NCBI GenBank assembly: GCA_017412085.1
Contig: JAFPYS010000016.1
Span: 1,720-65,719 of the forward strand
Direction: 5' to 3'
DNA from: Alphaproteobacteria bacterium
GTDB taxonomy: Bacteria > Pseudomonadota > Alphaproteobacteria > CAAHEQ01 > UBA3637
DNA length: 64,000 bases
In this document: piece after piece, positions 5,072 to 56,502 of the stretch
How the letters are laid out: each line of letters opens with the position of its first letter
Position numbering within the stretch: position 1 is the first letter of the stretch
Translations under genes and position numbers: made by a program
Notes under the pieces: model-generated
What the model was told of the DNA's origin: nothing
The model's database searches: none
What the model saw: only the letters and a program-made list of their open reading frames with translations

Positions 5072-6055
5072 ATGACAAAAGAACGAAAACCGAAGGAAAC
5101 AGATAAAATTCAGGAAACGGAACAGCTTTCCAACGCAAAATCCTCAAAGAAAAGAGGGGGAAGTAAGTTCTTCCTTTATCTTATTTTTATGTTTTTGTTG
5201 GCTGCGGGAAGTGGTTTTGCCGTCTATCATATGACACCACTTGTCTTGGCTTCTTTGGCTCCCAAAACACCGATTACGCTTAAAACAATTCCGGCCGCAA
5301 AAGCTCAAAGCTTGTCCGAACAAAAAACAACGGAATTTGTTTATGGTGATCAAGTAGCAACAATTACTGTCGAAGAAAACGAAATCACCCCATCCGATCC
5401 ATTTGAAACAGAGGATCCTGTTTACACGCCCGAAGAAAAGGTTGAAGCTGTTGTACAAACACCCGTCATCGTTGAGGCGCAAATTATTCCACCACAACAT
5501 GATATCATCCAACCTGAATATAATCCGCAACCGAGAAAGAAAATGGCGCCCTATTCCGTTTTAAAAGCTATGGAATTGCGCGACGCTTTTAAAAATGGTG
5601 AAGAATGTCGTCCATTGTTGGAAGAATTGGTGGCCATACCAAACAAAAGTGCTGAAATTGACCAGGCATTGGTCAACTTGTTGCAAGCTTGCTTGGATCG
5701 TCCACTCAGCGACCAAATGAAACAGGCTTTTTATCAGGCCAGAAAACGGGCAATTTTACGCATTTTCCAAGCAAAATATCCGACATATCTTGCCTATGTC
5801 AAAACTATTCCTTACCTGTTGGCAAATATACATAAAAAACATCCCGGCACCAATAATCCTTTAGATATTTTGGATCGCATTCAAAATGCAGTAGATCAGG
5901 ATCACCCACAATTGGTCTTAACCTTAATACCAGAGCTGCCAGAAAATGTACAAGCCACATTAAATGATGTAGCAAGGTATGCCGAGGCAGAATCTTCTTT
6001 ATATAAGACATTGAATTATTTAATGAAGGCTTTATTTGATGGGGAGGAAAGATAA
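5072..6055 (+). CDS. HemX/Mic60 (mitofilin)-like inner-membrane protein
   Basis: 327 aa. One N-terminal TM helix, an acidic/Pro-rich spacer and a helical C-terminal domain. TAATG overlap with the HemY-like gene, which is the position alphaproteobacterial Mic60 occupies. Confidence 0.45.
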   Translation: MTKERKPKETDKIQETEQLSNAKSSKKRGGSKFFLYLIFMFLLAAGSGFAVYHMTPLVLASLAPKTPITLKTIPAAKAQSLSEQKTTEFVYGDQVATITVEENEITPSDPFETEDPVYTPEEKVEAVVQTPVIVEAQIIPPQHDIIQPEYNPQPRKKMAPYSVLKAMELRDAFKNGEECRPLLEELVAIPNKSAEIDQALVNLLQACLDRPLSDQMKQAFYQARKRAILRIFQAKYPTYLAYVKTIPYLLANIHKKHPGTNNPLDILDRIQNAVDQDHPQLVLTLIPELPENVQATLNDVARYAEAESSLYKTLNYLMKALFDGEER

Positions 6056-7233
6056 TGACAAAATTTTTGATTGCATTAATTGCTTTATCTGGTCTAATTT
6101 ATCTGATTGCACATGATACATGGCGCATGACGTTAGACACATCCAATTATGAAATATCCGTCTCATTTATCCTGTTTTTAACCGGTTTAGTCGTATTGTG
6201 GTGGTTGCTCGCGCAAATTAAAAAGCCCTTCAAATGGTGGAACCAATTTAAGACATGGCGCAAAAGTCAAAAACAAATAGAAAAAGAAAAGTTTTTCCCA
6301 GAATTGCTGACAGCCTTATTGAGCCATGAAACAACCAAAGCCGCTAGTTTGATGGATCAAGCACAAAAATTATACGGCAAGGATTCTAAGGAAAATTTGC
6401 TTGTCTCTGCTTTATTGGCACCACAGGCAAATGTCTTCCAAGAATTAAAAGATAAAGAACCAACGAAATTGGCTGGACTTTATGGCTTGGTTCAAGAGGC
6501 GGAGGCAAAAGGTGACTTTGAACAAATGGAAGAGTTGTTGCAACAAGTGCCGAAGTCTCAAGAGAAAACTTTTTGGGTACAACAAGCAAAAATGCATCTT
6601 GCCCTCAATCGCAGCGATTGGAAGCAAGCCCTAACTTTGGTTGAACAAAACAAAAAACATTTAACCAAAGAACAATACCGCTCTCACAAGGCTTGTTTGC
6701 TTTTAAAATTGGGACGCACAAAAGAAGCTTTCCATTTAATGCCTGGCCATCCAGCCATTGCTTTGGCCTATGCAAAAGTGGATTCAAAGAATGCTCAACG
6801 TATTTTGGAAAAAGCTTGGCATGTTGCCCCAAATTGGCTTATTTATCAAGCATATAAGCAATCTATCAAAACCTTACCGAATAATAAAAAAGTTAAGGCA
6901 ATATTAAACTTAACACGCGCCACCAGAGATCAACGCTATTCCTTGCTCGCACGTGCAGATATGGATACAGACATGCACAATTGGGCACGTGCTAAGGAGA
7001 ATTTGGAAATTTACTTGCAAAACTATCCCCTCACAAGACAGGTGGCAGACATGATGGCAAATCTTGAACGCACAGCTTGGCATCATGAAGAAGCCGCCAA
7101 TGATTGGGAACGCAAAGCGATTGAATCCGAAGATGACTCTTTATGGATCTGTACAAAGTGCGGACATACAGCCGGTGAATGGCAAATTCTTTGCCCTCAT
7201 TGCAATGCTTTTGATAGCCTGTATAACAAGTAA
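6055..7233 (+). CDS. HemY N-terminal-domain / TPR protein with C-terminal zinc ribbon
   Basis: 392 aa. Two N-terminal TM helices, TPR-like body, terminal CTKCGH...CPHCNAF. Confidence 0.75.
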   Translation: MTKFLIALIALSGLIYLIAHDTWRMTLDTSNYEISVSFILFLTGLVVLWWLLAQIKKPFKWWNQFKTWRKSQKQIEKEKFFPELLTALLSHETTKAASLMDQAQKLYGKDSKENLLVSALLAPQANVFQELKDKEPTKLAGLYGLVQEAEAKGDFEQMEELLQQVPKSQEKTFWVQQAKMHLALNRSDWKQALTLVEQNKKHLTKEQYRSHKACLLLKLGRTKEAFHLMPGHPAIALAYAKVDSKNAQRILEKAWHVAPNWLIYQAYKQSIKTLPNNKKVKAILNLTRATRDQRYSLLARADMDTDMHNWARAKENLEIYLQNYPLTRQVADMMANLERTAWHHEEAANDWERKAIESEDDSLWICTKCGHTAGEWQILCPHCNAFDSLYNK

Positions 7234-7950
7234 TTAACGACTAGATGTTCTTGTATTTGCACGCACGTGCTGCGGGCGAATGATTTTTGCGCTGTCAATA
7301 CCGAATTTTGCCAAAACTTCATGCACAACCGGATTGATTTCTCTACCCTTGTTATTTGCAGCACCTATTAATCCTTGCGTCCATTGTGCAATCGCATTCC
7401 AGTTTGGCTCTAACAGCCGAACCGTTTTGGGTTTTATCGTTGTACCTTCGTACGCGATTTTTAAATCAAAAGCATTATAGACGGCTTTATCTTGTGTTCT
7501 AAGACTACGTTCACGAGAAAAAACTGTCATGCGTGTCATACGCCCTTTTGAATCCAATAACGGGCGCAAGTAAACATCAAAACGCTCAGCTGCACGAACG
7601 CTTTCTTCGTCTTCCCATGTGCACCTATCTTTTTTCAATAAACTCGGGGCAATATCCAACTTTTCGTAGCAAGCTAACACAGATCCGTATGCAGTATTGG
7701 CCACTAGCCCCAGCATAGAAATTTTAAATGAATGATATTTTTTATCATCTCCCGCAAACAGTAAATGTTGATGGAAAAATGAATTAGCAGGCTCAGCATT
7801 TTCTATATACCCAATTGTGCGATCCTCCGCAATCCAAGACCTTACACGAGAATTTCGGCAATAACGCAACTCACGTCCTCTTTGATCGATTACTGTTTGA
7901 TCTTTTTTACGATAAAGCGCACGACTTTGAAATTGTATTAATTTTTCCAT
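7234..7950 (-). CDS. hypothetical protein
   Basis: Start moved to MEKLIQ (GAGGAG RBS), because the longer ORF begins inside the -10 box. No recognisable domain. Confidence 0.55.
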   Translation of the reverse strand: MEKLIQFQSRALYRKKDQTVIDQRGRELRYCRNSRVRSWIAEDRTIGYIENAEPANSFFHQHLLFAGDDKKYHSFKISMLGLVANTAYGSVLACYEKLDIAPSLLKKDRCTWEDEESVRAAERFDVYLRPLLDSKGRMTRMTVFSRERSLRTQDKAVYNAFDLKIAYEGTTIKPKTVRLLEPNWNAIAQWTQGLIGAANNKGREINPVVHEVLAKFGIDSAKIIRPQHVRANTRTSSR

Positions 7951-11083: not shown

Positions 11084-12420
<1,337 letters not shown>

Positions 12421-12485: not shown

Positions 12486-13187
12486 ATGAAACAATTCCTT
12501 TTGGTATCTACTTTATTGTTAACATCTGCGTCCGCTTTTGCCTTCGGCGGCAATTTTCGGACAAAGGCCACACGTTCCGACTTTGGCGTCACTAGTGTTG
12601 GTATTCACTATGGCGGAAAAAATCAAGCCGATGTTGACTTTGAGTGCAATGGCAAACACGAAAAGAAAGATATCTATGGTATTTGCACCTGTGAAGCCGG
12701 ATACAGAAAAGAAAACAATGTTTGTGTGGAAGATATATGTGAAACAGATGACGAGTGTCAAGAGGGTGTTTGTGTTGATAAGACTTGTCACTCCTATAAT
12801 TATTGTGTTGAAACAGATTCCAACGGATACTGTTTAAAATGGCAATACTGTGCTTATGAATCTAGTGGTAATAAGATTTTAGGTATACCCAACGCAGATG
12901 GCGGCTGTGCGGCAACTGAAAATCATCGCGTTGTTTGTTTAGATACCAATCCCTCTGGTGTTTGTGATTCTTGGATTGAACCCTGCTTAAAAAATGATGA
13001 ATATCATGAAATCATTGGTACCCCAATGGCGCGCAGTTTTTGTTGTGATTCCGGGCACGCGTTCTGTGCTTATACAAATGACAAAGGACAATGTACCTAT
13101 TGGAATTGCTGCAACACAACAGACCACACGGGCAGCACCATAGTTGGTATAAAAAATGCCCAAGGATCGTGCAACAACGGATTCTAA
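12486..13187 (+). CDS. secreted cysteine-rich protein, paralog of the N-terminus of the 52419-55406 product
   Basis: 233 aa. Signal peptide ending SAFAFGG, an EGF-like C.C..GY..EN..C unit, then three Cys/Trp repeats. Confidence 0.8.
   Translation: MKQFLLVSTLLLTSASAFAFGGNFRTKATRSDFGVTSVGIHYGGKNQADVDFECNGKHEKKDIYGICTCEAGYRKENNVCVEDICETDDECQEGVCVDKTCHSYNYCVETDSNGYCLKWQYCAYESSGNKILGIPNADGGCAATENHRVVCLDTNPSGVCDSWIEPCLKNDEYHEIIGTPMARSFCCDSGHAFCAYTNDKGQCTYWNCCNTTDHTGSTIVGIKNAQGSCNNGF
12801..13172 (+). repeat. three tandem ~37-aa protein repeats within the 12486 CDS
   Basis: The units are YCVETDSNGYCLKWQYC..GNKILGIPNADGGC, VCLDTNPSGVCDSWIEPC..HEIIGTPMARSFC and FCAYTNDKGQCTYWNCC..GSTIVGIKNAQGSC. Confidence 0.75.
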
Positions 13188-17824: not shown

Positions 17825-18739
17825 TCACTGATGTCTCAAACGCCACAAACGAAAACGTGTTTTCCATGTTAATTGTTTAAGACTCACGATATGGTCCGAA
17901 AACAAACGATCTATTTGCGGCAACAGATGCGCAGTCAATTCCTTGTTCCAAGCATGGTATACCTTATTTACCAACATCTTTATTGCAACGGCCATCCGCT
18001 TTTGTACAATGGCTAATCTATCTGTTTTATAAAATTGACGATATATCATCCTCACCCCTTCAATATAGCTATCTATTTTCATCGTTGAAAAAAATGTATG
18101 AGTTGTACTCTGTTCATTTCGACGATAAATATAGCAAGGAATGTTAGTTGTCGCATATCGATCAACCAATGAAAACAACATTGTCGCCACCGGCCAATCC
18201 TCAAACACCATTCCCTTTGAAAAACGCTGTTTTTTAAACAAACGAACATCAAATAGCTTATTTGTGACCGAAGAAAAAATTTTGGAATCTCGCACAAAAT
18301 CAGCCAATCCATTTGTCCAAACAACATAATCTTTATCACTTGGTCGCATCAGCGACTGAACGTCTTGCACCTCATCTCTCAAAAACACACGACTTGACGC
18401 AATTTGCACATTCGTTTTTTGAACAATATCGTACAACACCTGTAACGCGTAGCTAGGTAGCATATCATCCGAATCCAAAAAGGCAATCCATCCACTTTTT
18501 GCATTCTCAATACCCACATTACGTGCAACAGAAATACCTTGATTAGATTGGGTAATAATTTTAATGCGTCGATCTTTTAATGCATACTTTTTCAAAATTG
18601 CCGCTGAATCATCCTGACTGCCATCGTTGACACAAATAATTTCAATATCTTTAAAGGTTTGTCCAAGCACAGAATCCAAACACTTTTCTAGATATTTCTC
18701 CGTGTTATAAATGGGAACAATAACTGATATCTTTGGCAT
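17825..18739 (-). CDS. glycosyltransferase family 2
   Basis: ISVIVPIYNTEKYL...ICVNDGSQDDS...LDSDD pattern. Confidence 0.85.
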   Translation of the reverse strand: MPKISVIVPIYNTEKYLEKCLDSVLGQTFKDIEIICVNDGSQDDSAAILKKYALKDRRIKIITQSNQGISVARNVGIENAKSGWIAFLDSDDMLPSYALQVLYDIVQKTNVQIASSRVFLRDEVQDVQSLMRPSDKDYVVWTNGLADFVRDSKIFSSVTNKLFDVRLFKKQRFSKGMVFEDWPVATMLFSLVDRYATTNIPCYIYRRNEQSTTHTFFSTMKIDSYIEGVRMIYRQFYKTDRLAIVQKRMAVAIKMLVNKVYHAWNKELTAHLLPQIDRLFSDHIVSLKQLTWKTRFRLWRLRHQ

Positions 18740-18813
18740 AAAAATCCTTTCTTATTTTGTAAGATAAAGCCTAATCTATTTTATATTCCTTGTCAAGTTG
18801 TATCAGATTTTTC

Positions 18814-18842
18814 TTGAATAGCGCTCAAAAATTTGCTATACT
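18814..18842 (+). promoter_or_regulatory. promoter for pta-ackA
   Basis: TTGAAT, 17 nt spacer, TATACT. Confidence 0.55.
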
Positions 18843-18869
18843 TTCTCCAATCTTTTGAAAGGACAAAAA

Positions 18870-19868
18870 ATGGTATCTATTGCTGAATTTGAAAATAATT
18901 TAATAAGTAAAGCCAAAGCGAACAAACAACGTATTGTCTTACCCGAGGGCGATTGCGAGCGTGTTTTAAGAGCCGCAGATGAAGCTTTAAAACAAGACAT
19001 TGCAGATATTATTATTTTGGGCAATCCGGAAACAATCCAGGCAAAAGAAAAAGAATTAGGACTTGATCTATCAAAGGCAAAAATCATAGATCATTTAAAT
19101 GCGCCCGAATTTGAAGACTATGCCAACACACTCGCCGAGCTACGCAAAGCAAAAGGATTAACCTTAGAGGAAGCCCACGAGATGATGAAAGATGGTGCTT
19201 ACTTTGGCACAATGATGGTTTACAAAGGCGTCGCAGATGGCATGGTTTCCGGCGCAGAACACACAACCGCCAACACCATTCGTCCCGCTTTACAATTTGT
19301 CAAAACAAAACCCGGGGCAACCATAGTATCTGGGGCTTTTTTGATGTGTTATAATGGCCAATTACAAGTTTTTGCAGATTGTGCTGTAACCCCTAATCCC
19401 ACCGCTGAACAACTATCCGAAATTGCCGTGACAACCGCCCAAACGGCGCGATTGTTTGACCTTGATCCAAAAGTGGCCTTTTTATCATACAGCACAGGCA
19501 CATCCAGCAAAGGTCCGTCCGTTGATTTAGTTAATGAAGCGGTGCGTTTAACAAAAGAAAAGAATATAGATTTTGCCTTTGAAGGGCCAATTCAATTTGA
19601 TGCAGCTGTCGATCCCGAAGTTGCTAAAACAAAATTACCCAATAGCCCTGTGGCAGGTCAAGCCAACGTATTTGTATTTCCGGAATTGAATACTGGGAAC
19701 TGTTGCTATAAAGCCATTCAACGCGCCCTTGGTGACAGTTGCTTGGCCGTCGGTCCGATTTTACAGGGGCTTAACAAACCCGTGAATGATTTATCGCGCG
19801 GGGCAACAATCAAAGATATTATTAACACAATCGCTTTCACAGCGGTGTTTGCTCAAAAGAAAGGATAA
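18870..19868 (+). CDS. pta: phosphate acetyltransferase (PTA_PTB domain only)
   Basis: Start at ATG MVSIAEF (AAAGGA RBS). RIVLPEG, ADGMVSGA and the C-terminal NDLSRGA motif. Confidence 0.9.
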   Translation: MVSIAEFENNLISKAKANKQRIVLPEGDCERVLRAADEALKQDIADIIILGNPETIQAKEKELGLDLSKAKIIDHLNAPEFEDYANTLAELRKAKGLTLEEAHEMMKDGAYFGTMMVYKGVADGMVSGAEHTTANTIRPALQFVKTKPGATIVSGAFLMCYNGQLQVFADCAVTPNPTAEQLSEIAVTTAQTARLFDLDPKVAFLSYSTGTSSKGPSVDLVNEAVRLTKEKNIDFAFEGPIQFDAAVDPEVAKTKLPNSPVAGQANVFVFPELNTGNCCYKAIQRALGDSCLAVGPILQGLNKPVNDLSRGATIKDIINTIAFTAVFAQKKG

Positions 19869-19870
19869 AA

Positions 19871-21076
19871 ATGACAAAGATTTTAGTAATTAACTGTGGA
19901 TCTTCCACAATCAAATATCAACTATTTAACATGGACACCAAAGAAGTGTTGTGTTCTGGATTAGTGGAAAAAATTGGCGAATCTATCAGCCGTATTACAC
20001 ATAAAAAATTCCCAGATACAGAACAAGCAACGAAGACAGTGATTGAAGAACGCTTCCCCACACACGCCGAAGGTATGAAAAAGGCGGTGGAAATGATGAT
20101 GACAGGCGACACTGCCGTTATTACAGACATCAACGAAATCGGCGGTGTTGGGCATCGCATCGTGCATGGCGGATCCTATTTCAAACCAATGGTTGTTACA
20201 CCAGAAGTTATTGAAAACTTACGCAAAGTGATTCCTTTGGCTCCTTTGCACAATCCTGGACACTTAATTGGCATTCAGGTTGCCCAAGAAATTTTTCCGG
20301 CCGCCACACACGTCGTTGTGTTTGATACAGCATTTCATCAAACAATGCCGGCACAGGCTTATATGTATCCCCTTCCCTATGAAATTTATGAAAAGTATGC
20401 TGTTCGTAAATACGGTGCCCATGGTACAAGCCATAAATATGTGGCACGCCGCGCAGCCGAGTTATTGGGAAAGCCATTGGATCAAACAAATTTGATTACT
20501 TGCCACATCGGAAGCGGCTCCTCCATTTCCGCCATTAAAGATGGCAAATGCATTGACACCTCCATGGGTTTAACCCCATTGGATGGCTTGATGATGGGCA
20601 CACGTTGTGGATCTATTGACCCAGCCACAGTTGGCTTTTTAATGCGTAACGCCAACATGGATATTGACGCAGTCGATAAGATGATGACAAAGCAAAGTGG
20701 CCTTTTGGGCGTTTGCGGTGTCAATGATATGCGTGACGTACATGCTAAAATTGCCGATGGCGATCAAAAAGCCAAATTGGCCCTTGATATGCTGACATAC
20801 CGTATTCGTGGCTTTATTGGTAATTACTTTGCCCAATTAAACGGCCAGTTGGATGCGTTGGTCTTTACTGCCGGCGTTGGTGAAAATGATGAAATTGTGC
20901 GTCGTGAAGTCGTTAATGGCTTAACGGGTTTGGGCTTCAAGTTGAACGAAGAAGAAAACAACAAACGTCCAGGAGAATATGCCTTGATTTCTGCGGCAGA
21001 TTCTAAATTCAAGATTTATGTCATTCGCACAAATGAGGAATTGGAAATCGCTAACGAAACCTTGGCTTTAATGTAA
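19871..21076 (+). CDS. ackA: acetate kinase
   Basis: ILVINCGSSTIKYQLF, VGHRIVHGG, HLGSG-type motif (CHIGSGSS). Confidence 0.95.
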   Translation: MTKILVINCGSSTIKYQLFNMDTKEVLCSGLVEKIGESISRITHKKFPDTEQATKTVIEERFPTHAEGMKKAVEMMMTGDTAVITDINEIGGVGHRIVHGGSYFKPMVVTPEVIENLRKVIPLAPLHNPGHLIGIQVAQEIFPAATHVVVFDTAFHQTMPAQAYMYPLPYEIYEKYAVRKYGAHGTSHKYVARRAAELLGKPLDQTNLITCHIGSGSSISAIKDGKCIDTSMGLTPLDGLMMGTRCGSIDPATVGFLMRNANMDIDAVDKMMTKQSGLLGVCGVNDMRDVHAKIADGDQKAKLALDMLTYRIRGFIGNYFAQLNGQLDALVFTAGVGENDEIVRREVVNGLTGLGFKLNEEENNKRPGEYALISAADSKFKIYVIRTNEELEIANETLALM

Positions 21077-21090
21077 AAAACAGGCATAAG

Positions 21091-21116
21091 AAAACTCCCC
21101 ATTTAAGGGGAGTTTT
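21091..21116. terminator. bidirectional terminator between ackA and the pilin-like gene
   Basis: aaaactcccc/ggggagtttt stem flanked by A and T runs. Confidence 0.8.
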
Positions 21117-21132
21117 TTATTAGAGAGTTTAA

Positions 21133-21513
21133 TTATGATAATTCAACGGTTTCACCGCCAACTTTTCCATTAAAACTCTCAATAGCCATATCATGGAAAG
21201 TACCGTCTCCACTATCACAGCTCTCTGTGTATAGACGGTATCTACCACCTGAATAATCAGCACCTATTTCAGTACAAGGTGACAAGCTGCTAGGAAAATC
21301 ACCATAAACATCTGTATAAGTAACACCATCGCTGGGACGTCCTTTTTCTTCAAAGGCAATCCACGTCATATTCATGGCATTAATCAATTCATTGGCTTTA
21401 TATTTCTTCATGACTTGGGTATAACCAGCAATACCACCGATGGACAGAACGCCGATGATGGCTAACACGCCTAACATTTCGACCATTGAACGGCCGGATT
21501 CATTATTTGTCAT
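21133..21513 (-). CDS. prepilin-type (type IV pilin / T2SS pseudopilin-like) protein
   Basis: Start at MTNNESG (AAAGGAGAA RBS). Class III signal: G|RSMVEMLGVLAIIGVLS with Glu at +5. Confidence 0.75.
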   Translation of the reverse strand: MTNNESGRSMVEMLGVLAIIGVLSIGGIAGYTQVMKKYKANELINAMNMTWIAFEEKGRPSDGVTYTDVYGDFPSSLSPCTEIGADYSGGRYRLYTESCDSGDGTFHDMAIESFNGKVGGETVELS

Positions 21514-21590
21514 TTTTATATTCTCCTTTTTAACGTTAAAAATCACAGAAAACCCATTTTTGTACAAGCATTTTTCTCTCGCATATTCTC

Positions 21591-21619
21591 CTTATAACAC
21601 ACAATAAAATATCTTGCAA
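21591..21619 (-). promoter_or_regulatory. candidate promoter for the pilin-like gene
   Basis: Minus strand TTGCAA, 17 nt spacer, TATAAG. Leader is about 75 nt. Confidence 0.4.
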
Positions 21620-21626
21620 TAAAATT

Positions 21627-22589
21627 TTATCTTTTTTTGAAAAAAAATCGTTTATTATAACATTGCCTCAAAAGTTGACACCAACTTTTTTGCATCGTTG
21701 GTGGCAGCAAGGCCACCTCCTTTTCCGAAAATTTCTTCATCAAAGGCCAAAGTGTGCTATAAAACAAATCTTTATGACCTTCTGGCAAATACAACTTTGT
21801 ATTTCGAATAGACGACATTAACAACATCAAAAACACGTCACACCACTTTTTTAACAATTTTCTCTTTCTTAAATAATCGTACAGCACTTTCATAACTTTA
21901 ATAAAATCAAGGGCTCGCATATTCTTTCGATACGTCGCCCCCATTACACTATCCGAATGACGCACATAGTTATGCAACTTTTCTGGCAAATAATAGATGG
22001 ATTGGCTTGCCGTCATATATTCAACAAAAAAAACTGTATCTGTATGTGTTAATCCTTCTGGAAATTGAATATGATTTTTGTTGATAACATCCATTTTGAA
22101 TATTTTGTTCCAAGAAAAAACATTCGTCTGAATGACATTTTTTTGCGTGACAGAGCATTTTCCATCAAATTTTATAGCATAATATTCTATCTGCCCCCTC
22201 CTTGGTTTTTCCCCCTCAAGATAAATTGGTTTAATCCCACAACAAACAATATCCGACTTACTTTCTATCAACGCCTTTAACATCTTCTCACACATATCAA
22301 AATCATAAAAATCATCTGCATCACAAAACATAACATATGGTGTTTTAACCTGTTTTAATGCTAAATTCTGAGCAACTGCCTGACCTTTATTTTTTTGAGT
22401 CACAAGACGAATGCGTGAATCATTTTTTTGATATTCCTGAACAATTTCAGCACTTTTATCCGGCGACCCATCATCCACACAAATAATCTCTATTTCTTTC
22501 AAAGTTTGTCCAACCAAATGATCCAAACACTTTTTCAAGTATGGCTCACATTTAAACATTGGAACAATAATGGAAATTTTTGCCTGCAT
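21627..22589 (-). CDS. glycosyltransferase family 2
   Basis: ISIIVPMFKCEPYL...ICVDDGSPDKS...CDADD. Confidence 0.85.
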   Translation of the reverse strand: MQAKISIIVPMFKCEPYLKKCLDHLVGQTLKEIEIICVDDGSPDKSAEIVQEYQKNDSRIRLVTQKNKGQAVAQNLALKQVKTPYVMFCDADDFYDFDMCEKMLKALIESKSDIVCCGIKPIYLEGEKPRRGQIEYYAIKFDGKCSVTQKNVIQTNVFSWNKIFKMDVINKNHIQFPEGLTHTDTVFFVEYMTASQSIYYLPEKLHNYVRHSDSVMGATYRKNMRALDFIKVMKVLYDYLRKRKLLKKWCDVFLMLLMSSIRNTKLYLPEGHKDLFYSTLWPLMKKFSEKEVALLPPTMQKSWCQLLRQCYNKRFFFKKR

Positions 22590-22598
22590 TCTTTTTCC

Positions 22599-24563
22599 CT
22601 AATCTGACAAAAGTTTGTGATACTTTGGTGGCTTTTTAAAGAAAACAGGAACACCCAGAATTTTCAGAACAAAGCCACCTGTATAGCGCTTAAATGAAAA
22701 CAAAGAAAATTCATAAACATCCCTTATTATGTTAAGACGCCACAAAGTCCAAAAATAAGAAATCTTCTTATAAAACGATTCATGTTTTAAGGTATATCTT
22801 GCTACAAATTCCTCAATTCCTTTGGGCAATCTCACATGGTATTTTTTCATTGTTTCAACACATAACTTATAAAATTTAGGTGTAAACTTCGTCCGTGCAT
22901 CTGGCAACAACTTAATATTCAAAACATTATAGGCTTTCGTCAAAAACCATGAAATATAATAAGACAGCATCTTTGGGCTGGACAACTCTTTTACCACTTT
23001 AAAGGTTTCATGTAAAACATCACAATATCCACCATAATTGCTATTTATACACCCAATTGTGGAATCTGCATGCATCGTCCTGAAGTAAAGATTTTCCTTT
23101 AAAATCCCCATGCGCTCCGCCTGCAAAACACTCTCTGTAAAGAACAAAGTATCTTCATAATCGCAATTCGTCCAATGAATGCTATTTATATCTAAAAATT
23201 CTTTGCGGTAAAATGTCAAACACGCACACACCGCCATTTTAGGCAAAAACTCTCGGGCATCCGATGGCGCAAATACCGGAGGCATCTCTTTATTTAAATA
23301 AGCAAAATTCGTATATAGACTTTTATATTTTTCCCCTGTTTTCTCATCACAATCCTCTGTTTCAAACATTAACATATCTAATCGATACAGCTTCGAATAC
23401 AAATACAAATATTCCGAACAATCCTGTGAAATCGCATCGTCCGCATCCACATATTGAATATATTCCCCAGACGCTTTTTTAAGGGCTGTTTCACGTGCCA
23501 CACCCTGTTTTTGATTCATCTGTGTCAGTACCGTAATTCTAGAGTCCTTATCTGCATACTCTTTTAATATAGCCAAACTAGCATCCTGAGAACCATCATC
23601 CACGCAAATAATTTCAATTTCTTTTAATGTTTGACCAACCAAACTATCCAAGCAATGACGCAGATATTTTTCTTCATTATAAACTGGGACAATTATTGAA
23701 ACCTTTGCTTGAACGTCAGCATATAGAAACGCGGTCATTCGAAGCAAATCCAAACGTTCAGTCTCGTTTTCACAGAACTTCATAACAACGGGAAAAAACT
23801 CTTGCAGTTTTATTAAACTTGAATTTTTTAATTGATGATAATTATTCGTATCGGCTATTTTTAAATTATCAATAATACTTTTCCAACGGCTAACAACCTT
23901 TTCTTTTGTCCAATGGAATATTTCCTGCGGATTGCACACCTTCACACAAATCACTTTATGTAATGCATAAAATTTCTTTGCAAGCTGCATGACATGCACC
24001 AAAAAATTTGAAGTATCTCCAAAAGCATATTGGTTAAAACAAATATGATTTTTATTCAAAAAGGATCGATTATAAATCCCCCGTTGATATCCTTCATCAA
24101 ATTGACAATATTCATAATCCATCCACATATTTGCTTTAAATATAAGTCCAGAATCCTCTTTAAATGGCTGATAAACTTTTCCTTGCGCCAAATTTAATTT
24201 AGCACATTCTCCCATACATACATTTGCATCGTTTAACTTAGCCACTTCATACAAAGTTTCTAACACATTATTTGTTGCATAAACATTATCCTGCTCTAAA
24301 AAGGCAACAAACTCCCCTTGTGCACATTTGATGCCTTCATTCCTCGCCTCAGCAAATGAAATCTTATCTTTTGAAATAACTTTCACACGATTATCCAACA
24401 TCGCATAGGTCGACAGAACACCAAAGGTATTATCAGAAGAACCCAAATCCACACAGATTACCTCAAAATCCGATAATGTCTGGAATAAAACAGAATCCAA
24501 ACAATTTCCTAAGATATCGTCGGCATTAAAAACAGGAAGGACTACAGAAACTTTTGGTACCAT
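22599..24563 (-). CDS. bifunctional glycosyltransferase with two GT2 domains
   Basis: 654 aa. Two GT2 signatures: VSVVLPVFNADD...ICVDLGSSDNT, and VSIIVPVYNEEKYL...ICVDDGSQDAS...VDADD. Confidence 0.8.
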   Translation of the reverse strand: MVPKVSVVLPVFNADDILGNCLDSVLFQTLSDFEVICVDLGSSDNTFGVLSTYAMLDNRVKVISKDKISFAEARNEGIKCAQGEFVAFLEQDNVYATNNVLETLYEVAKLNDANVCMGECAKLNLAQGKVYQPFKEDSGLIFKANMWMDYEYCQFDEGYQRGIYNRSFLNKNHICFNQYAFGDTSNFLVHVMQLAKKFYALHKVICVKVCNPQEIFHWTKEKVVSRWKSIIDNLKIADTNNYHQLKNSSLIKLQEFFPVVMKFCENETERLDLLRMTAFLYADVQAKVSIIVPVYNEEKYLRHCLDSLVGQTLKEIEIICVDDGSQDASLAILKEYADKDSRITVLTQMNQKQGVARETALKKASGEYIQYVDADDAISQDCSEYLYLYSKLYRLDMLMFETEDCDEKTGEKYKSLYTNFAYLNKEMPPVFAPSDAREFLPKMAVCACLTFYRKEFLDINSIHWTNCDYEDTLFFTESVLQAERMGILKENLYFRTMHADSTIGCINSNYGGYCDVLHETFKVVKELSSPKMLSYYISWFLTKAYNVLNIKLLPDARTKFTPKFYKLCVETMKKYHVRLPKGIEEFVARYTLKHESFYKKISYFWTLWRLNIIRDVYEFSLFSFKRYTGGFVLKILGVPVFFKKPPKYHKLLSD

Positions 24564-29111: not shown

Positions 29112-30680
29112 TTAGTGATGACAGCCGGCAAAGATATCCAGCTTTTCATCATACACATCCGTAGAGATCCCAGCCCATCCCAAGATAGAATGGAAAATCG
29201 CATCTTGAGTCTGTTGTTGTTTGGTTTTATTTCGCATGCATCTTTTGCTCATTCCCAACGCTTGACGTGTTGATTTGGGCATCCACACAAAAAATGGTAC
29301 TTGTTTTTGTACATCTGGTGCATCTTTAAAATCTCCGCCATGCCCATAGATTTCTCCCTCGCCCAAAGATTCACCATGATCTGATATGTACATTAAAACT
29401 GGATTATATTCGTCTGTCATTTTGGATAATGTTTTAATTAAATCTGCAATAACAAGGGACGTATAATACATCGTATTGTCATAAGTGTTCACCAATTCTT
29501 CATATGCGCAACTTGTAGAATCCGCACGATCACAATACGGCTTCCATTTTTTATATTCAGCGGGAACACGCAAATCATATCTTGGCCCATGTGAACCACG
29601 TTGGTGCAACACCACAAATGTATCCTTTGTAAACCCAGACATCTTATCACGGAATGCATCATTCAATAACATATCAACACAATCCCGTGTTTCGCAGGTA
29701 TATTCTGTTTGAATATTGCGACACACTTTATTACAACCCAATTCATTATCCAGCCACAAAAGATCTATACCGTTCTGTGACAAAATGTCCAGCGCATTTG
29801 TTGTATAAGGCAAAGCTTGCTCTTTGTAATTTTCCCTTGTAAAAGCATTAAACATACAAGGAACGGAAACGCGCGTGACAACACCACAAGATTCTGTTTT
29901 CTTAAAAACAATCATATCGCGCAAAAACGCCTGTAGCGGCTCTGCGGTATTTCTACGATAACCACTCAATGAAAAATTGGCATCCCGTGCAGATTCTCCC
30001 AAAACAAAAACAAATAAATTTTTCTTTTTCCCCTTCCAATAAGGATGAAATTCCATGCCGGCCGTTGTGTTCAATCCCTCTACTTTTTTTAAATAATTTG
30101 ATATTACACCAACCACGCCCGACACATATCCCGTTGGTACAAATTGATATCTCAAATTAAAATTCGTTTTTAAGTATATCTTGACGCTTGTTCTGTAAGG
30201 CAAAAAAATACTTAATAAAAACAACATGATAGCCAACAAAGATAAAGTTTTTCTGAAATGCAATTTAAAAGGTTCAAATTCTATTTTTAAACGCCACACG
30301 ACAATACTGGGCACTATTCCAAACAAAATTACATATACCCAAAAAGAAATTCCCATCCATTCCGTAGCTTCAAAAAAATTTGTGTCCAGTATATTCATCA
30401 ACATCGTTTTATTTAAAACCAGGTGATAGGCTGTGATAAAATAACCTGCTATTGAATTTGTAATAAGTAATAAAATGGACAATGGTTTAACCGTCTTACG
30501 CGCAAATAAAATTGACTGAAAAATCATCAACCCTGTAATACTCATAAGAATCAAAACAACAAAGACCCACGGTGAAACGGTGCTCCAAACTTGCCGCCAA
30601 AAATAAGTATTATAAACACCAACCGTCCAAAGGGCGTATATGAAACTATATGTTAAAAATGGAAGCTTAAAGTGTCTCAA
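29112..30680 (-). CDS. eptA: phosphoethanolamine-lipid A transferase (EptA family)
   Basis: 522 aa. Five N-terminal TM helices plus a sulfatase-fold domain (VLGESARDANFSLSGY, HGPRY, SDHGESLGE). Confidence 0.85.
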   Translation of the reverse strand: MRHFKLPFLTYSFIYALWTVGVYNTYFWRQVWSTVSPWVFVVLILMSITGLMIFQSILFARKTVKPLSILLLITNSIAGYFITAYHLVLNKTMLMNILDTNFFEATEWMGISFWVYVILFGIVPSIVVWRLKIEFEPFKLHFRKTLSLLAIMLFLLSIFLPYRTSVKIYLKTNFNLRYQFVPTGYVSGVVGVISNYLKKVEGLNTTAGMEFHPYWKGKKKNLFVFVLGESARDANFSLSGYRRNTAEPLQAFLRDMIVFKKTESCGVVTRVSVPCMFNAFTRENYKEQALPYTTNALDILSQNGIDLLWLDNELGCNKVCRNIQTEYTCETRDCVDMLLNDAFRDKMSGFTKDTFVVLHQRGSHGPRYDLRVPAEYKKWKPYCDRADSTSCAYEELVNTYDNTMYYTSLVIADLIKTLSKMTDEYNPVLMYISDHGESLGEGEIYGHGGDFKDAPDVQKQVPFFVWMPKSTRQALGMSKRCMRNKTKQQQTQDAIFHSILGWAGISTDVYDEKLDIFAGCHH

Positions 30681-52371: not shown

Positions 52372-52399
52372 TTGACATTTCGGAATTTTTATCTACTAT
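52372..52399 (+). promoter_or_regulatory. promoter for the giant cysteine-rich protein gene
   Basis: TTGACA, 16 nt spacer, TACTAT, followed by a GAGAAGGGA RBS and the ATG at 52419. Confidence 0.6.
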
Positions 52400-52418
52400 T
52401 GTGAGAAGGGACTGGATC

Positions 52419-55406
52419 ATGCACAAGATTGTTATATTCATATCTATTCTGTTGTTTTCACTTTCTGCTTTTGCCTTTGGCGGCGGCGGTGGCGGCGGTG
52501 GTCGCAGCGCAAATCGCACCAATGAGCGCTATAAATCTGGTGTAGATAGCTTGGGTATCCACGTCGATGGCAAAGGTAACAAACCAGATATAACCTTTAC
52601 TTGTGATGATCCAAATGCAACACCAGATTCCTATGGTGTTTGCTCCTGCAACGAAGGATATAAAAAAGAAAATGACACATGCGTTCAGGATGCTTGCCAA
52701 GGATTTACTCCAAACGGCTGTATCACAGACTGCACCTCCTCCAATGGGCAAGCTTCTTACACAGAATGCAACAATTCAGGAATCTGTATTAGCAATCAAT
52801 GCCAATACGATCCTATAATCCCCGATCCAATTGAATGCAATCCTTCATGTGGCGAATGCTTAACTTGTGATACATCAAATGGCACATGTGTTATTGATGA
52901 AAATCAAGAAGATCAGCCCTGTACAAACGGTGCTTGCAAAGCAGGCGCCTGTACGAATTTATGCCAAGGGATAACACCTGATGTATGTATGAAGTGTAAT
53001 CCTCAAACAGGAAATCAGGAAATAGACACCACTCAGGATACACAACCCTGTGAAATCGGATCTATCTGTGATGCAGGATTTTGCGTTTGCGATTTCAGCC
53101 AGCATCTTGAAGGGTCGGCTGGCGCTTGCACGTGTCAACAAGGCTACTATGGTTCCGCATCTACACAATGTAATGAATGTCCAACTAATGCTTCTTGTCC
53201 CGGCGGCGAGACCTTCAGTTGTCAAAATGGTTATGAATCCAATGGCAGCGCATGTGTTTGTAACACACAAAAATTTATCAATGCTCAAGGAGCGTGTGAT
53301 ACATGTCCGACCCAAGCTACCTGTGATGGCACGGCGAACTTTACTTGCGGCGACTGGGCAAAACAAGGTGACACCTGCGTTGATCCTTGCTTGGGCCAAA
53401 CACCAACAGGATGCATAAAAACCTTAAAAGCTGCGGCGGGAAGTTGTGTTCCAGATCAATACTATACGGCATCGGAACATTATGTTTGCGCCGAAAATAA
53501 GGAATGTAACGATCAACAACAGTGCGTCTGTGTTGGATACATGAAAAATACTGTTTGCACCGCCTGTCCAGAAAAGGCACAATGCGATGGAACGAATTTC
53601 ACATGTAATGCCAGCTATTACAAGGATGGCGATGGTTGCACCTTGTGTGACACCACCAAAGGTGAGTTCATGGACAACGGAACATGCAAATGTGACAATA
53701 ATAACAACTACTATGGCACTCCAGGCTCTTGTTCCCTTTGCAATGCAACTGGCAAAATCTTAAACGGTAACACATGTGTTTGCGATCAAACACACCACTT
53801 TGTAGGCGATGATGTTTGTTCTTGTGACACTGCAAATGGTTGGAATCCAGATCCTGATGGCCTATGTATTCAATGCACACAAACAGGCACCGTTTATGAT
53901 CCTGGCACAAAAACTTGCATCTGTGATGAGTCAGCTCATTGGGTAAGCGATGGTATTAATTCTTGTCAATGTGCAACAAATTATCAGCCCAAACAAGAAA
54001 ATGCTACCACTACCTGCGTTTTAGATCCTTGTATTGCAATCCGCACACAGCATGCAAAATGTTTGAATCAATGCGAATCTGAAGCTGGCGTTGTGACAAC
54101 CGAAAACTATAACACGCTTTGCAGCAGCACAAACGATCCTACAGAAAATGATAATTGGATCTGCAATACCGAAACACACGCATGTGAAGATCCATGTACA
54201 ATCGGCGAACACAATATAGATGAATGCACCCTTAATTGGAATGCCAGCCACGGGGTCTGTGTTCCTGAATATGCCAGCACAACAACAAGTTGCACAATTA
54301 ATGGCAAATCCGGCTTCCTCTGTGATGGTGAGGGACATTGTAGATGCCCAGAAGGATCTTACATAACCGATACAGACGGCACATGTGCTGCATGTCCTAT
54401 ATCAGATGCAGACCACCTGTCCAGTAGCAATGGTTTGTCCAACACAGAATGTAACCAATGTGCTGATGCCTGGTATCAAGATGGCACATGTTATAGTTCC
54501 TGTCCAAATCCAGACACTTATTGGAGAACCAGTGATACAGGCGCATCCTGTGTTTCGTGTGACAACAAAAAAACTGCAAGCACACCTATCAGCGTAGAAT
54601 CCTGTGCAAAATGTGCTGGATTGCGTTACATAGAGCCAAACAAGTCTGGTGGACCGAAATGTTGGTCATGCAATCAATCCAAAACAACCAGCACCTATGC
54701 ATTCACTGGTAGCAACGGATTCAGAGGTGGATATGAAGCTCGTTTACAAGAATTTATTGATTTATGTAACGCCTGTCCTAATAGATTCTATAATGAAGAA
54801 ACCCACAAATGTGAGTGCTTAAACGTGGCGGGCAGTACATGTTGTGAGATTGGAAAAGTCGCGATGGATGGTCAATGCGTCTCTGCGTCATTAACTTGTA
54901 CAAGTGGTACTACTTTCTACAGCTATGATACACATTCATGTCTCCCGTGTGGAACAGAAGGGCACAAAGCAGATCGAACGACATGTGATGCGTGTGGTAT
55001 GGTCTATCTCACCAGCGACAGTACTTGCCACAACAAACCGCCCCTAGGTCAACTTATGGATAACAATGGAAATGTCTTTGACTGTACCTCTACCGTCACT
55101 GTTTTAGGTGTTACTTCACAAAGCATGTGCCAAGAGTCTTGTTCAAATCGTTTTTATTCTGACCGTACCTCTAGAACAGATTGTATTAGATGTGATGCCG
55201 CCGATGCCTATCCATCAACCGCATCTGAGTGCTCAAAATGTGCGAGTAATCGAACATTTAATGCGGACACAGGTCTATGCAGTTGCGCTGTAACCAAAAA
55301 AACAGTAACCCGTATGGTATCCGATTGGGATCCCGAAACACACACATTCTTACCTCCGGCAGAGAAAAAGGTTTCAATTTGTCCTAGACCAGAGGATGAG
55401 GAATAA
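52419..55406 (+). CDS. 995-aa secreted hyper-cysteine-rich repeat protein (EGF/furin/VSP-like CxxC modules)
   Basis: Start at MHKIVIF, downstream of the promoter and RBS; the 1045-aa ORF start lies upstream of that promoter. Signal peptide ..SLSAFA, then Gly8, then continuous Cys-rich modules. No TM helix or other anchor. Confidence 0.8.
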   Translation: MHKIVIFISILLFSLSAFAFGGGGGGGGRSANRTNERYKSGVDSLGIHVDGKGNKPDITFTCDDPNATPDSYGVCSCNEGYKKENDTCVQDACQGFTPNGCITDCTSSNGQASYTECNNSGICISNQCQYDPIIPDPIECNPSCGECLTCDTSNGTCVIDENQEDQPCTNGACKAGACTNLCQGITPDVCMKCNPQTGNQEIDTTQDTQPCEIGSICDAGFCVCDFSQHLEGSAGACTCQQGYYGSASTQCNECPTNASCPGGETFSCQNGYESNGSACVCNTQKFINAQGACDTCPTQATCDGTANFTCGDWAKQGDTCVDPCLGQTPTGCIKTLKAAAGSCVPDQYYTASEHYVCAENKECNDQQQCVCVGYMKNTVCTACPEKAQCDGTNFTCNASYYKDGDGCTLCDTTKGEFMDNGTCKCDNNNNYYGTPGSCSLCNATGKILNGNTCVCDQTHHFVGDDVCSCDTANGWNPDPDGLCIQCTQTGTVYDPGTKTCICDESAHWVSDGINSCQCATNYQPKQENATTTCVLDPCIAIRTQHAKCLNQCESEAGVVTTENYNTLCSSTNDPTENDNWICNTETHACEDPCTIGEHNIDECTLNWNASHGVCVPEYASTTTSCTINGKSGFLCDGEGHCRCPEGSYITDTDGTCAACPISDADHLSSSNGLSNTECNQCADAWYQDGTCYSSCPNPDTYWRTSDTGASCVSCDNKKTASTPISVESCAKCAGLRYIEPNKSGGPKCWSCNQSKTTSTYAFTGSNGFRGGYEARLQEFIDLCNACPNRFYNEETHKCECLNVAGSTCCEIGKVAMDGQCVSASLTCTSGTTFYSYDTHSCLPCGTEGHKADRTTCDACGMVYLTSDSTCHNKPPLGQLMDNNGNVFDCTSTVTVLGVTSQSMCQESCSNRFYSDRTSRTDCIRCDAADAYPSTASECSKCASNRTFNADTGLCSCAVTKKTVTRMVSDWDPETHTFLPPAEKKVSICPRPEDEE
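52479..52502 (+). repeat. (GGY)8 trinucleotide tract encoding Gly8
   Basis: ggcggcggcggtggcggcggtggt, immediately after the signal peptide. Confidence 0.9.
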
Positions 55407-55432: not shown

Positions 55433-56347
55433 ATGAAATTTTTAAATATATTACTTTGTTGTATTTCCTTGAGTGTAATGTCCACGGCTTATGCTCAATC
55501 CATACAAGAGTTGGAATCCTGTCAAGCGATTGTTTTACAAGCTGAAGAAGATGGTAATACTGAAGTTTATGATGAATGTGGTTTCAATGACTTACAAACC
55601 GCCATAGCTTATTGGGTACCATTGGCCGAGGAAAATGGATGGGGAAATGCATTATACGAAATCTATACACGTCACCCCACATATCCAAATATTAAAAAAT
55701 ATCTTTATAAGGCTGCCGAATTTCAACAACCTCAAGCATTAGTTATGGTTGCTGATGAGTTATTTGAGCAAAAGAAAATTCCAGAGGCTATGCGTTATTA
55801 TAATGTGGCCATTCAATCTGGGATGTTAGATGAAAACACTCAAGGAACCATTACTGGACGTTTGGCTGTCATGTATGCCGATCCAGACAGCCCCTACTAT
55901 GATCCCCAAAAAGCGTTGCCCTTATTGCAAAAAGCGACGCAACAACGCCAAGCATTACCCAACAACATTATGGGCACTCTTACTTTGTTTGGTTTGGATG
56001 GCGCACAACAAAATGCGGCAGAAGCTTTTAAATATTATTGGCGTGCAATTTTACTTGGTTGTCCGGCCGCTGAGGAAAACTTGGGCTTTTTCTTGTTGGC
56101 CAAAAACAACAAGATAGATATAAAAACTCTTATTCAAGAACTCAAATCGCGCACTTATTCTTGTGATCCAGTTCCCGAAACATCCCTGGCTTATCCTCCC
56201 TACCATTTAACATACACACCTCAACAATGTGCGGACATTAATTACTATGCCCAACGGCTGGTTGACACTTCTTTGCCATTTAAAGGAAAAGAAGAATGTG
56301 CATACAGCTCGGATATGTCAGACATGGCCCAAATTTTATCCAAGTAA
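55433..56347 (+). CDS. secreted Sel1-like (SLR/TPR) repeat protein
   Basis: 304 aa. Signal peptide ..STAYA and Sel1-type A..YY..A...G......LG..Y repeats. Starts 26 nt after the giant gene with a GGGAGGG RBS. Confidence 0.7.
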   Translation: MKFLNILLCCISLSVMSTAYAQSIQELESCQAIVLQAEEDGNTEVYDECGFNDLQTAIAYWVPLAEENGWGNALYEIYTRHPTYPNIKKYLYKAAEFQQPQALVMVADELFEQKKIPEAMRYYNVAIQSGMLDENTQGTITGRLAVMYADPDSPYYDPQKALPLLQKATQQRQALPNNIMGTLTLFGLDGAQQNAAEAFKYYWRAILLGCPAAEENLGFFLLAKNNKIDIKTLIQELKSRTYSCDPVPETSLAYPPYHLTYTPQQCADINYYAQRLVDTSLPFKGKEECAYSSDMSDMAQILSK

Positions 56348-56390: not shown

Positions 56391-56502
56391 ATTCCGGTAA
56401 TCCTTGCTCGCTCCGGATGCGGGCTATGTTTCAGGTGGGTGCGCCAAAAAGGCTCATTCGCATAAATCGAAACGAGAAAAACCATAAGGAGAGGTAGAAA
56501 AT
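56391..56502 (+). promoter_or_regulatory. structured ~110-nt 5' leader of rpsF (candidate S6:S18 autoregulatory element)
   Basis: Unusually long, GC-enriched leader with complementary segments (ccgg..ccgg, gctcgctccggatgcgggc) between the promoter and the AAGGAGAGG RBS. Confidence 0.35.

Follow-up and report, generated by a model that had tools for sequence, protein, structure and literature searches.

The stretch of DNA analysed here (the window, 64,000 nucleotides) comes from an Alphaproteobacteria bacterium (GenBank assembly GCA_017412085.1, contig JAFPYS010000016.1, positions 1,720 to 65,719 of the forward strand). It encodes a cysteine-rich protein of 995 amino acids (aa) with 114 Cys. 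By sequence comparison, the protein is a member of a large undescribed family of uncultured rumen and gut Alphaproteobacteria, which is absent from both Pfam and NCBIfam. With about even confidence, it is read as a Sec-exported, disulfide-rich and fast-diversifying modular protein, most likely a binding or coat protein at the surface or outside the cell.

The locus is a real gene. The open reading frame (ORF) lies on the plus strand, starts with the ATG at 52419 and ends with the stop codon at 55404-55406, as the first-pass annotation of this DNA had given in coordinates (52419-55406) and length. An identical protein was called on the ENA contig XIEF21-1_SAMN15829886 scaffold_530, an 82-kb metagenome contig, and the GC content of the gene is similar to that of its flanks. 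A ribosome-binding site (RBS) had been claimed, and a Shine-Dalgarno-like sequence, GAGAAGGGA, can indeed be read at 52403-52411 (+), its AAGGGA box ending 7 nt before the ATG. A promoter of near-consensus quality had been assigned to the gene as well. The sigma-70-like candidate TTGACA-16-TACTAT (52372-52399, +) is present and agrees at 10 of 12 positions, but it is a consensus match alone, and the count of promoter-like sites across the region was not above shuffle expectation.

Export signal, leader and family membership

The N-terminus of the protein reads MHKIVIFISILLFSLSAFA, followed by the predicted cleavage point and then by phenylalanine and eight glycines. Residues 1-19 (52419-52475, +) form a predicted Sec-type signal peptide with cleavage at AFA|F, and the A-x-A|FGG junction is kept in 64 relatives. 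This is the sole hydrophobic segment of the protein. A Kyte-Doolittle mean above 1.6 in a 19-residue window was confined to residues 1-25, and the scan of the 995-aa protein found no transmembrane helix beyond the signal peptide. A lipobox is likewise lacking, as the end of the signal peptide has no cysteine. The mature part is extremely rich in cysteine (114 residues, 11.5%). In all these features, namely the signal peptide with its Gly8 linker, the lack of a transmembrane helix or lipobox and the high cysteine content, the ORF product agrees with its earlier description.

The mature protein starts with the leader which defines the family. It covers residues 20-61 (52476-52601, +) and is composed of FGGGGGGGG, a basic and polar stretch and GVDSLGIH…PDITF. 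It was modelled by AlphaFold with a predicted local distance difference test (pLDDT) score below 50, and is probably short and unstructured. In NCBIfam, including its curated sorting-signal and cysteine-rich-repeat families, no family was matched by the protein at E<=1.

An exhaustive profile search revealed 417 relatives at E<=1e-3, 137 at E<=1e-10 and 30 at E<=1e-30. Hidden Markov models of eight query regions (sub-HMMs) were scored on 157 retrieved sequences, representing the best 150 of the 417 together with cluster members. The leader was common to 64 of the 157, while the modules following it vary in type, number and order. The consensus of the leader comprises a signal peptide ending in S-A-F-A, then F-G-G-G-G, about 10 polar or basic residues, G-V-D-[SA]-I-G-[IV]-H-x-G-G, D-I-x-F-x-C and the start of the first module, C-x-C-N-x-G-Y…C-V. 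The proposed family was defined by a signal peptide ending in A-x-A, FGG(G)n, about 10 polar or basic residues, GV[DNS]x[IF]G[IV][HY] and a first Cys-rich module of the form C-x-C-x2-GY…C. All the elements were found in the query, in the 64 relatives and in a paralogue within the window. A word-indexed protein search strongly under-reported the family when compared with the exhaustive profile search, as the full protein retrieved 7 relatives and a 35-sequence alignment of the leader retrieved 4. A scan of a genome collection returned one locus, in the rumen metagenome-assembled genome (MAG) 'Rumen_Coassembly_mag_2400'. All the named members are proteins of 'Alphaproteobacteria bacterium' MAGs.

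The paralogue in the window (12486-13187, +) lies directly after obgE (11401-12420) and encodes 233 aa with 22 Cys in the mature part. Its leader (…SAFA|FGGNF…GVTSVGIHYGG…DVDFEC…GICTCEAGY) was matched by the leader sub-HMM at E 1e-12 and by the sub-HMM of the adjoining module, N2, at E 1e-6. Its C-terminal module set differs from that of the 995-aa protein. Several further Cys-rich genes were observed at related loci. A 332-aa member with a variant leader (…YAGGSIFGGG…GVYSIGIHIC…) is found beside mnmG at locus L013 (11851-12849, -), in a relative with 83% MnmG identity; its unassigned C-terminal 'W-x3-NYC…L-M' domain recurs in the paralogues P0018, P0022 and P0019. A resemblance to C-type lectins considered for the C-terminal domain of some paralogues (W-x2-A-x-NWC…) was dropped, as it had no Pfam or PDB sequence support. 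Locus L014 (2961-4628, +) encodes a Cys-rich protein with a type-IV-pilin-like GRG|MVEILGVL… start and a long Ser-rich tail, and L002 (15480-16745, +) one with a membrane-anchor-like start and CxxC…R…C motifs. In L009 and L010 (Logan contigs, GC 32%, which may derive from a protist, a giant virus or a bacterium) the weak relative P0007 is situated within a run of Cys-rich genes on the same strand, several of them with Ephrin_rec_like matches.

Module architecture and relationship to known families

The first-pass annotation had described three repeated composite motifs, and all of them are present and rare in 1000 shuffles: C-x-C-x2-GY-x(5-7)-C was observed 2 times against 0.01 expected, C-x2-C-P-x(3-6)-C-x-G 3 times against 0.03 and C-x2-C-[DN] 7 times against 1.9. 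The bare CxxC (19 against 13.3) and CxC (13 against 13.4) pairs showed no excess over the Cys density in the same shuffles. A self-comparison, which had been suggested to find a recurrent module, revealed repeats well above the shuffled controls. In 45-aa windows, 40 of 1653 pairs scored above the 99.9th percentile of the shuffled pairs, compared with an expectation of about 1.6. Repeats with a period of about 45 aa were located at residues 131-191, 221-410 and 401-520, and a duplication (776 versus 881-896) was found in the C-terminal part. The windowed comparison was used instead of blastp of the protein against itself, which returned the identity match alone.

The modules are arranged as follows, all on the plus strand. 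Residues 62-130 (52602-52808) contain an EGF-like half-module (CDDPNA…C-x-C-x2-GY) and a knot-type module of the 'CxGFxPxGC…C' form, kept beside the leader in 47 relatives (sub-HMM N2). Two Cys-rich modules of about 45 aa follow at residues 131-224 (52809-53090; self-similarity of 131-176 with 146-191; sub-HMM mid1). Residues 225-410 (53091-53648) hold three modules of GCC2_GCC3/Ephrin_rec_like type (237-281, 279-320 and 369-407), here called module B, which align with Pfam-annotated Ephrin_rec_like repeats and are interrupted by a knot-type module at 324-368. This is the best-modelled part of the full AlphaFold model (pLDDT 72-78). It is followed by DUF5874-like modules of the pattern C-x-C-D-x3-5-[YW]-x-G…C-x2-C… at residues 411-535 (53649-54023), with repeats at 416/461 and 452/499 and a sub-threshold Pfam match. 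Two knot-type modules (CIAIRTQHAKC… and CTIGEHNIDEC…) lie at residues 536-642 (54024-54344), where the sub-HMM modK matches 19 relatives. The conserved C-terminal region, residues 643-995 (54345-55403; alignment A6), is composed of CPxGxY…CxxC…CxxCxNRx[FY] modules.

The earlier description of the modules as eukaryote-style was upheld for one named family, and no test at threshold level supported it for the others. The hmmscan check which it had proposed gave no Furin-like, VSP, Ephrin_rec_like or laminin-EGF match in Pfam for the whole protein and five relatives at E up to 10. The Ephrin_rec_like (GCC2_GCC3, PF07699) HMM, which has a gathering score of 23.1 bits, also found no match at E<=10 in 16 isolated modules. 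In the profile-profile comparison by hhalign, the profile of module B (A4, 16 bacterial modules of the family) aligned with a profile of Ephrin_rec_like repeats (A7, 19 repeats from P0045 and P0139) with 98.5% probability and E 2e-15 over 40 columns. Both source proteins were retrieved by the family profile, and they carry Pfam-annotated Ephrin_rec_like repeats (E 3e-50 and 7e-28, up to 10 stretches) and a protein kinase domain. P0045 is laid out like a eukaryotic receptor kinase, with a signal peptide, ten Ephrin_rec_like repeats, one transmembrane segment (by eye) and the kinase domain. The module B units align with the repeats of these kinase proteins beyond the cysteines, at CP, N[AS]xC, FxC and GY. 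On the strength of the hhalign result, the profiles place module B in the GCC2_GCC3 kind as a divergent subtype. Isolated module B units also gave sub-threshold matches to EGF_MSP1_1 (10 of 16, best E 9e-4), cEGF (E 1e-3) and EGF_3 (E 2e-3), and these weak EGF matches map to their C-terminal halves. Matches of module B to Pfam MSC (PF09402) were rejected as an artefact, since they cover only profile positions ~48-75. The same positions match all 16 isolated units and many Cys-rich relatives (P0048, E 6e-17), and look like a captured Cys-rich segment and not like true Man1/Src1 homology.

DUF5874 (PF19202) was the sole hmmscan match of the 995-aa protein. It scored 25.1 bits against a gathering cut-off of 27.1 (E 2.3e-5), with residues 406-475 aligned to model positions 2-74 of 74, and was matched by three of the six family members tested. 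Homology of the module to DUF5874 is judged likely from sequence. For the C-terminal CPxGxY…CxxC modules, the best match of the profile A5 in PDB was a marginal one, to the cysteine-rich domain of the TNFR Fn14 (2kn0, E 0.007), and the modules showed a weak 20-column resemblance to the Ephrin_rec_like profile; a comparison of A6 with A5 was circular and was set aside. The furin-like motif C-x3-C-P-x-G-[YF] is visible at 643-660 and in the arrays of paralogues, without a match to Pfam Furin-like (PF00757). The Giardia VSP (PF03302) and laminin-EGF (PF00053) families were not matched in the same Pfam search, and no hydrophobic segment exists beyond residues 1-25. For the EGF-like and TNFR-like parts, the eukaryote-style label is plausible. 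A PDB sequence search with the full and module B profiles gave chance-level matches alone (L37e; LRR N-terminal caps, E 0.08). No match to a characterised bacterial family was obtained, and a literature search on DUF5874, GCC2_GCC3 in bacteria, rumen alphaproteobacterial symbionts and EGF-like bacterial proteins yielded nothing on this family.

The full-length AlphaFold model (mean pLDDT 60, predicted template modelling score (pTM) 0.26) is a string of beta-hairpin modules. Modelled alone, the C-terminal 356 aa showed small beta-hairpin and short-helix modules with better scores (pLDDT 75, pTM 0.58; pLDDT 80-90 over residues ~780-995). The structural search proposed with the first annotation gave no significant match, as Foldseek against PDB (full and C-terminal models) and BFVD found nothing at E<=1e-3, the best E being 0.036 for the full model and 0.3 for the C-terminal one. 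The top matches of the full model were all eukaryotic extracellular disulfide-rich proteins, none of them significant: the Entamoeba Gal/GalNAc lectin came first (E 0.036), together with NELL2 EGF, Pfs25, HER2 and TNFR. TNFR1 and DcR3 stood at E 0.44 or worse, and HER2 and R-spondin were likewise non-significant. As modelled, the C-terminal region is without a recognisable solved counterpart.

The protein resembles several known systems in part. With Ephrin_rec_like/GCC2_GCC3 repeats it shares the unit of about 44 aa, …C-x2-C-P-x-N-[AS]-x-C-x3-4-F-x-C-x2-GY-x3-5-C, and the repeat period, but its first half-unit starts with C-x-C-x2-GY and not with C-x2-C-P-x-G-T-Y-K. Unlike the receptor-kinase ectodomains, it has three such units among other module types, no transmembrane segment or kinase, and a bacterial host. 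Giardia VSPs and the Entamoeba Gal/GalNAc lectin heavy chain are similar in their high Cys content, many CxxC motifs and family diversity behind a common targeting element, going by general knowledge of VSP biology; here the conserved element is N-terminal and not C-terminal, and a C-terminal membrane anchor is lacking. The relatives P0005, P0017, P0020 and P0026 are arrays of the DUF5874 unit, but neither the FGGGG leader nor the other module types occur in such arrays, whose last domain is a different one, often DUF6273. The likeness to TNF-receptor and furin-like cysteine-rich domains lies in the CPxGxY…G-x-C-x2-C motif; all the matches were non-significant, with no Pfam TNFR_c6 or Furin-like match.

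The query has an even number of cysteines, and the mature part of 47 out of 61 leader-bearing proteins also has an even number (p 2.7e-5), several of the odd cases being fragments. The cysteines are presumably disulfide-bonded, which is favoured because the protein would be exported by Sec to the periplasm.

Divergence between close relatives and genomic neighbourhood

To measure divergence, the syntenic locus L003 was compared with the window. MnmG, MnmE, EngB, RpsF and DksA showed 93-99% identity, with a dN of 0.029 for MnmG and 0.034 for MnmE. YidC was 80% identical (dN 0.139) and the neighbouring Sel1-repeat protein 74% (dN 0.199). The Cys-rich protein was the most divergent of these, with 41% identity in the best high-scoring segment pair, 53% over the 863 alignable of 995 residues and a dN of 0.41, which is about 12-14 times that of mnmG and mnmE. 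The two copies also differ by gains and losses of modules. In its C-terminal half, the query is closer to the non-syntenic P0001 (72% identity) than to the syntenic P0002, which suggests mosaicism.

Locally, mnmG-mnmE-engB-yidC lie on the minus strand, followed by the Cys-rich gene, a 304-aa gene and rpsF-rpsR-rplI. In at least five other assemblies, orthologues and paralogues are found among bacterial housekeeping genes. The slot beside yidC is empty in relatives with 87%, 83% and 74% MnmG identity, and two other members share the context of rpmI-rplT on one side and murD-like/murL on the other. The family genes are therefore scattered among housekeeping genes and not placed in a secretion operon. 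The MnmG of the window is identical to that of an NCBI 'Alphaproteobacteria bacterium' MAG. All the listed MnmG relatives (120, 72-100% identity) come from metagenomes or MAGs, and the only names given are 'Alphaproteobacteria bacterium' and 'Pseudomonadota bacterium'. We take the sample labels XIEF21, TONG22 and SHIW14 to resemble those of ruminant-gut studies. The genes for MlaA, MlaC and an OprB porin in the window and an OEP/TolC-family gene on the contig mark the organism as diderm. The window also encodes EptA, an EptA-type phosphoethanolamine transferase at 29112-30680, and is rich in envelope-modification genes; family-2 glycosyltransferase genes are clustered at 17825-24563 (17825-18739, 21627-22589 and 22599-24563).

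The 304-aa gene (55433-56347, +) is a probable operon partner of the Cys-rich gene. It follows after a 26-nt gap with its own GGGAGGG RBS, and its product matches Sel1-repeat proteins in PDB at E 1e-4 to 6e-4, the Pfam Sel1 and TPR matches being below threshold. The product has several Cys and a hydrophobic, signal-peptide-like start (by eye). In two lineages, represented by L003-L005 (74% identity) and L006 (48%, partial), the gene is likewise found behind the orthologue, and it is absent at this position in L002, L007 and L008. A terminator-like hairpin follows it at 56406-56424 (+), which makes co-transcription of the two genes probable; the hairpin is a pattern match alone and its tail does not look T-rich. 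The family with its common leader, the paralogue in the window and the probable co-transcription with the Sel1-repeat gene had all escaped the first-pass annotation. Bacterial secreted Sel1-like-repeat proteins, such as the Helicobacter Hcp family and Legionella LpnE/EnhC, are similar to this neighbouring product only.

Elsewhere in the window, a leucine-rich repeat (LRR) gene (45128-46330, with a weak LRR_4 match and a precomputed LRR_TMOD-LMOD match on the contig) stands beside an uncharacterised gene in the segment 43656-46330 (-). In L002, two ORFs of 307 and 397 aa at 5611-7721 (+) lie directly upstream of a Cys-rich homologue, and the contig has a pair of 308 and 397 aa, a correspondence of length alone. 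Among the products of L003 (224-1911), L006 (3466-4329) and L014 (13053-20600), from related assemblies, are ankyrin-repeat proteins, a patatin-like phospholipase and four LRR_5 proteins in tandem. Ankyrin-repeat, patatin-like and LRR genes often go with host association, and an interaction of the clade with eukaryotic cells is therefore possible.

Competing explanations and significance

In the proposed mechanism, removal of the signal peptide would leave the short leader FGGGGGGGG…GVDSLGIH… followed by about 930 residues of small Cys-rich modules of EGF-like/knot, GCC2_GCC3/Ephrin_rec_like, DUF5874 and TNFR/furin-like CPxGxY-CxxC types. In the oxidising periplasm, these modules would fold into a long disulfide-stapled rod. 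The leader would most likely be a common sorting or anchoring tag because it is shared by many otherwise differently built proteins, while the variable module array and the C-terminal region would supply binding specificity. Far faster evolution than that of the neighbours, along with module changes between close relatives, is what would be expected of a binding or coat protein exposed at the surface or outside the cell, where it would meet a changing partner such as a host or protist surface, a phage or a predator. The secreted Sel1-repeat protein might be its partner or assembly factor. We infer that the protein crosses the outer membrane or is anchored at the surface and that it functions in binding, and the adhesin or host-mimic role named in the first annotation is presumed in the same way.

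Several observations weigh against this reading. The sequence indicates Sec export alone; no outer-membrane translocation signal, sortase-type tag or adjacent secretion gene was found in NCBIfam or at the examined loci. The leader had no match in Pfam or NCBIfam, so its role is a guess, and no ligand-binding domain was recognised. Since dS is saturated against L003, dN/dS cannot demonstrate positive selection. The model confidence is low to medium (pLDDT 60 and 75) with no significant fold match. The even Cys count fits four-Cys zinc sites equally with disulfides, and the regex for DsbA-type active sites, too weak a test to interpret, found none in the window.

One rival reading is a protein which is exported by Sec but retained in the periplasm or cell envelope, as a structural component or as a thiol or metal (Zn, Cu) buffer through its CxxC pairs. 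Only a Sec signal is evident in a diderm organism, the C-terminal CxxC…CxxC is weakly zinc-ribbon-like (L37e E 0.04; eL37 and LIM E 0.1-0.2) and the even Cys count suits Cys4 sites. However, the zinc-ribbon matches are non-significant, the modules match extracellular EGF, Ephrin_rec_like and TNFR-type units, and very fast divergence with module shuffling is unusual for a housekeeping envelope or metal-buffer protein; retention is considered rather unlikely. Little credence is given to a polymorphic secreted effector or toxin, in which the leader would serve trafficking, the variable C-terminal parts would be 'warheads' and the Sel1 protein an immunity protein or chaperone. The family does pair a conserved leader with variable C-terminal parts and, in two lineages, a small conserved gene lies immediately downstream. 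Yet Pfam and NCBIfam showed no toxin, enzyme, Rhs, PAAR, type VI secretion or contact-dependent inhibition-type domain, the C-terminal region itself consists of Cys-rich modules conserved in several members, and no secretion-system neighbours exist at the examined loci. The Sel1 gene, moreover, is missing in three of five contexts and its product has its own signal-peptide-like start (by eye).

A third rival is that the gene was recently transferred from a gut protist, or that a piece of eukaryotic DNA was mis-binned into a bacterial MAG. In its favour, module B has its greatest similarity to repeats of proteins built like eukaryotic receptor kinases. Against this, the gene lies between yidC and rpsF on the 82-kb contig with a bacterial-type promoter-like site, an RBS and flank-like GC, its orthologues and paralogues occupy bacterial housekeeping contexts in five or more further assemblies, and nothing of eukaryote type is matched by the leader, the knot modules or the C-terminal region. 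Recent eukaryotic origin is considered very improbable, while module B itself may be an older acquisition. All three explanations, periplasmic retention, an effector and recent eukaryotic origin, fit less well than a binding or coat protein.

If the members were ordinary periplasmic components, the value of the finding would be limited to the annotation of a currently unannotated family. Even so, the family has hundreds of members without Pfam or NCBIfam coverage in an uncultured alphaproteobacterial clade, built from parts of known general kinds. By its shared leader the family can be catalogued from sequence in a simple way, and the leader can be tested as a new sorting signal. Given their fast mosaic evolution, these proteins are likely contact points with a host, protist, phage or predator, and the link to the repeats of receptor-kinase ectodomains raises the question of gene exchange between gut bacteria and protists. 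To our knowledge, bacteria seldom have proteins made of disulfide-rich modules of eukaryote type. A bolder proposal, which we regard as doubtful, is that the leader is a new N-terminal sorting or anchoring signal which places a large, hypervariable, disulfide-rich repertoire of eukaryote type (GCC2_GCC3/EGF/TNFR-like) on the surface of this uncultured clade of rumen and gut Alphaproteobacteria. One or more of the module types would have been exchanged with gut protists and would serve to attach to them or evade them. If true, this surface repertoire would be a bacterial counterpart of the variable surface coats of protists.

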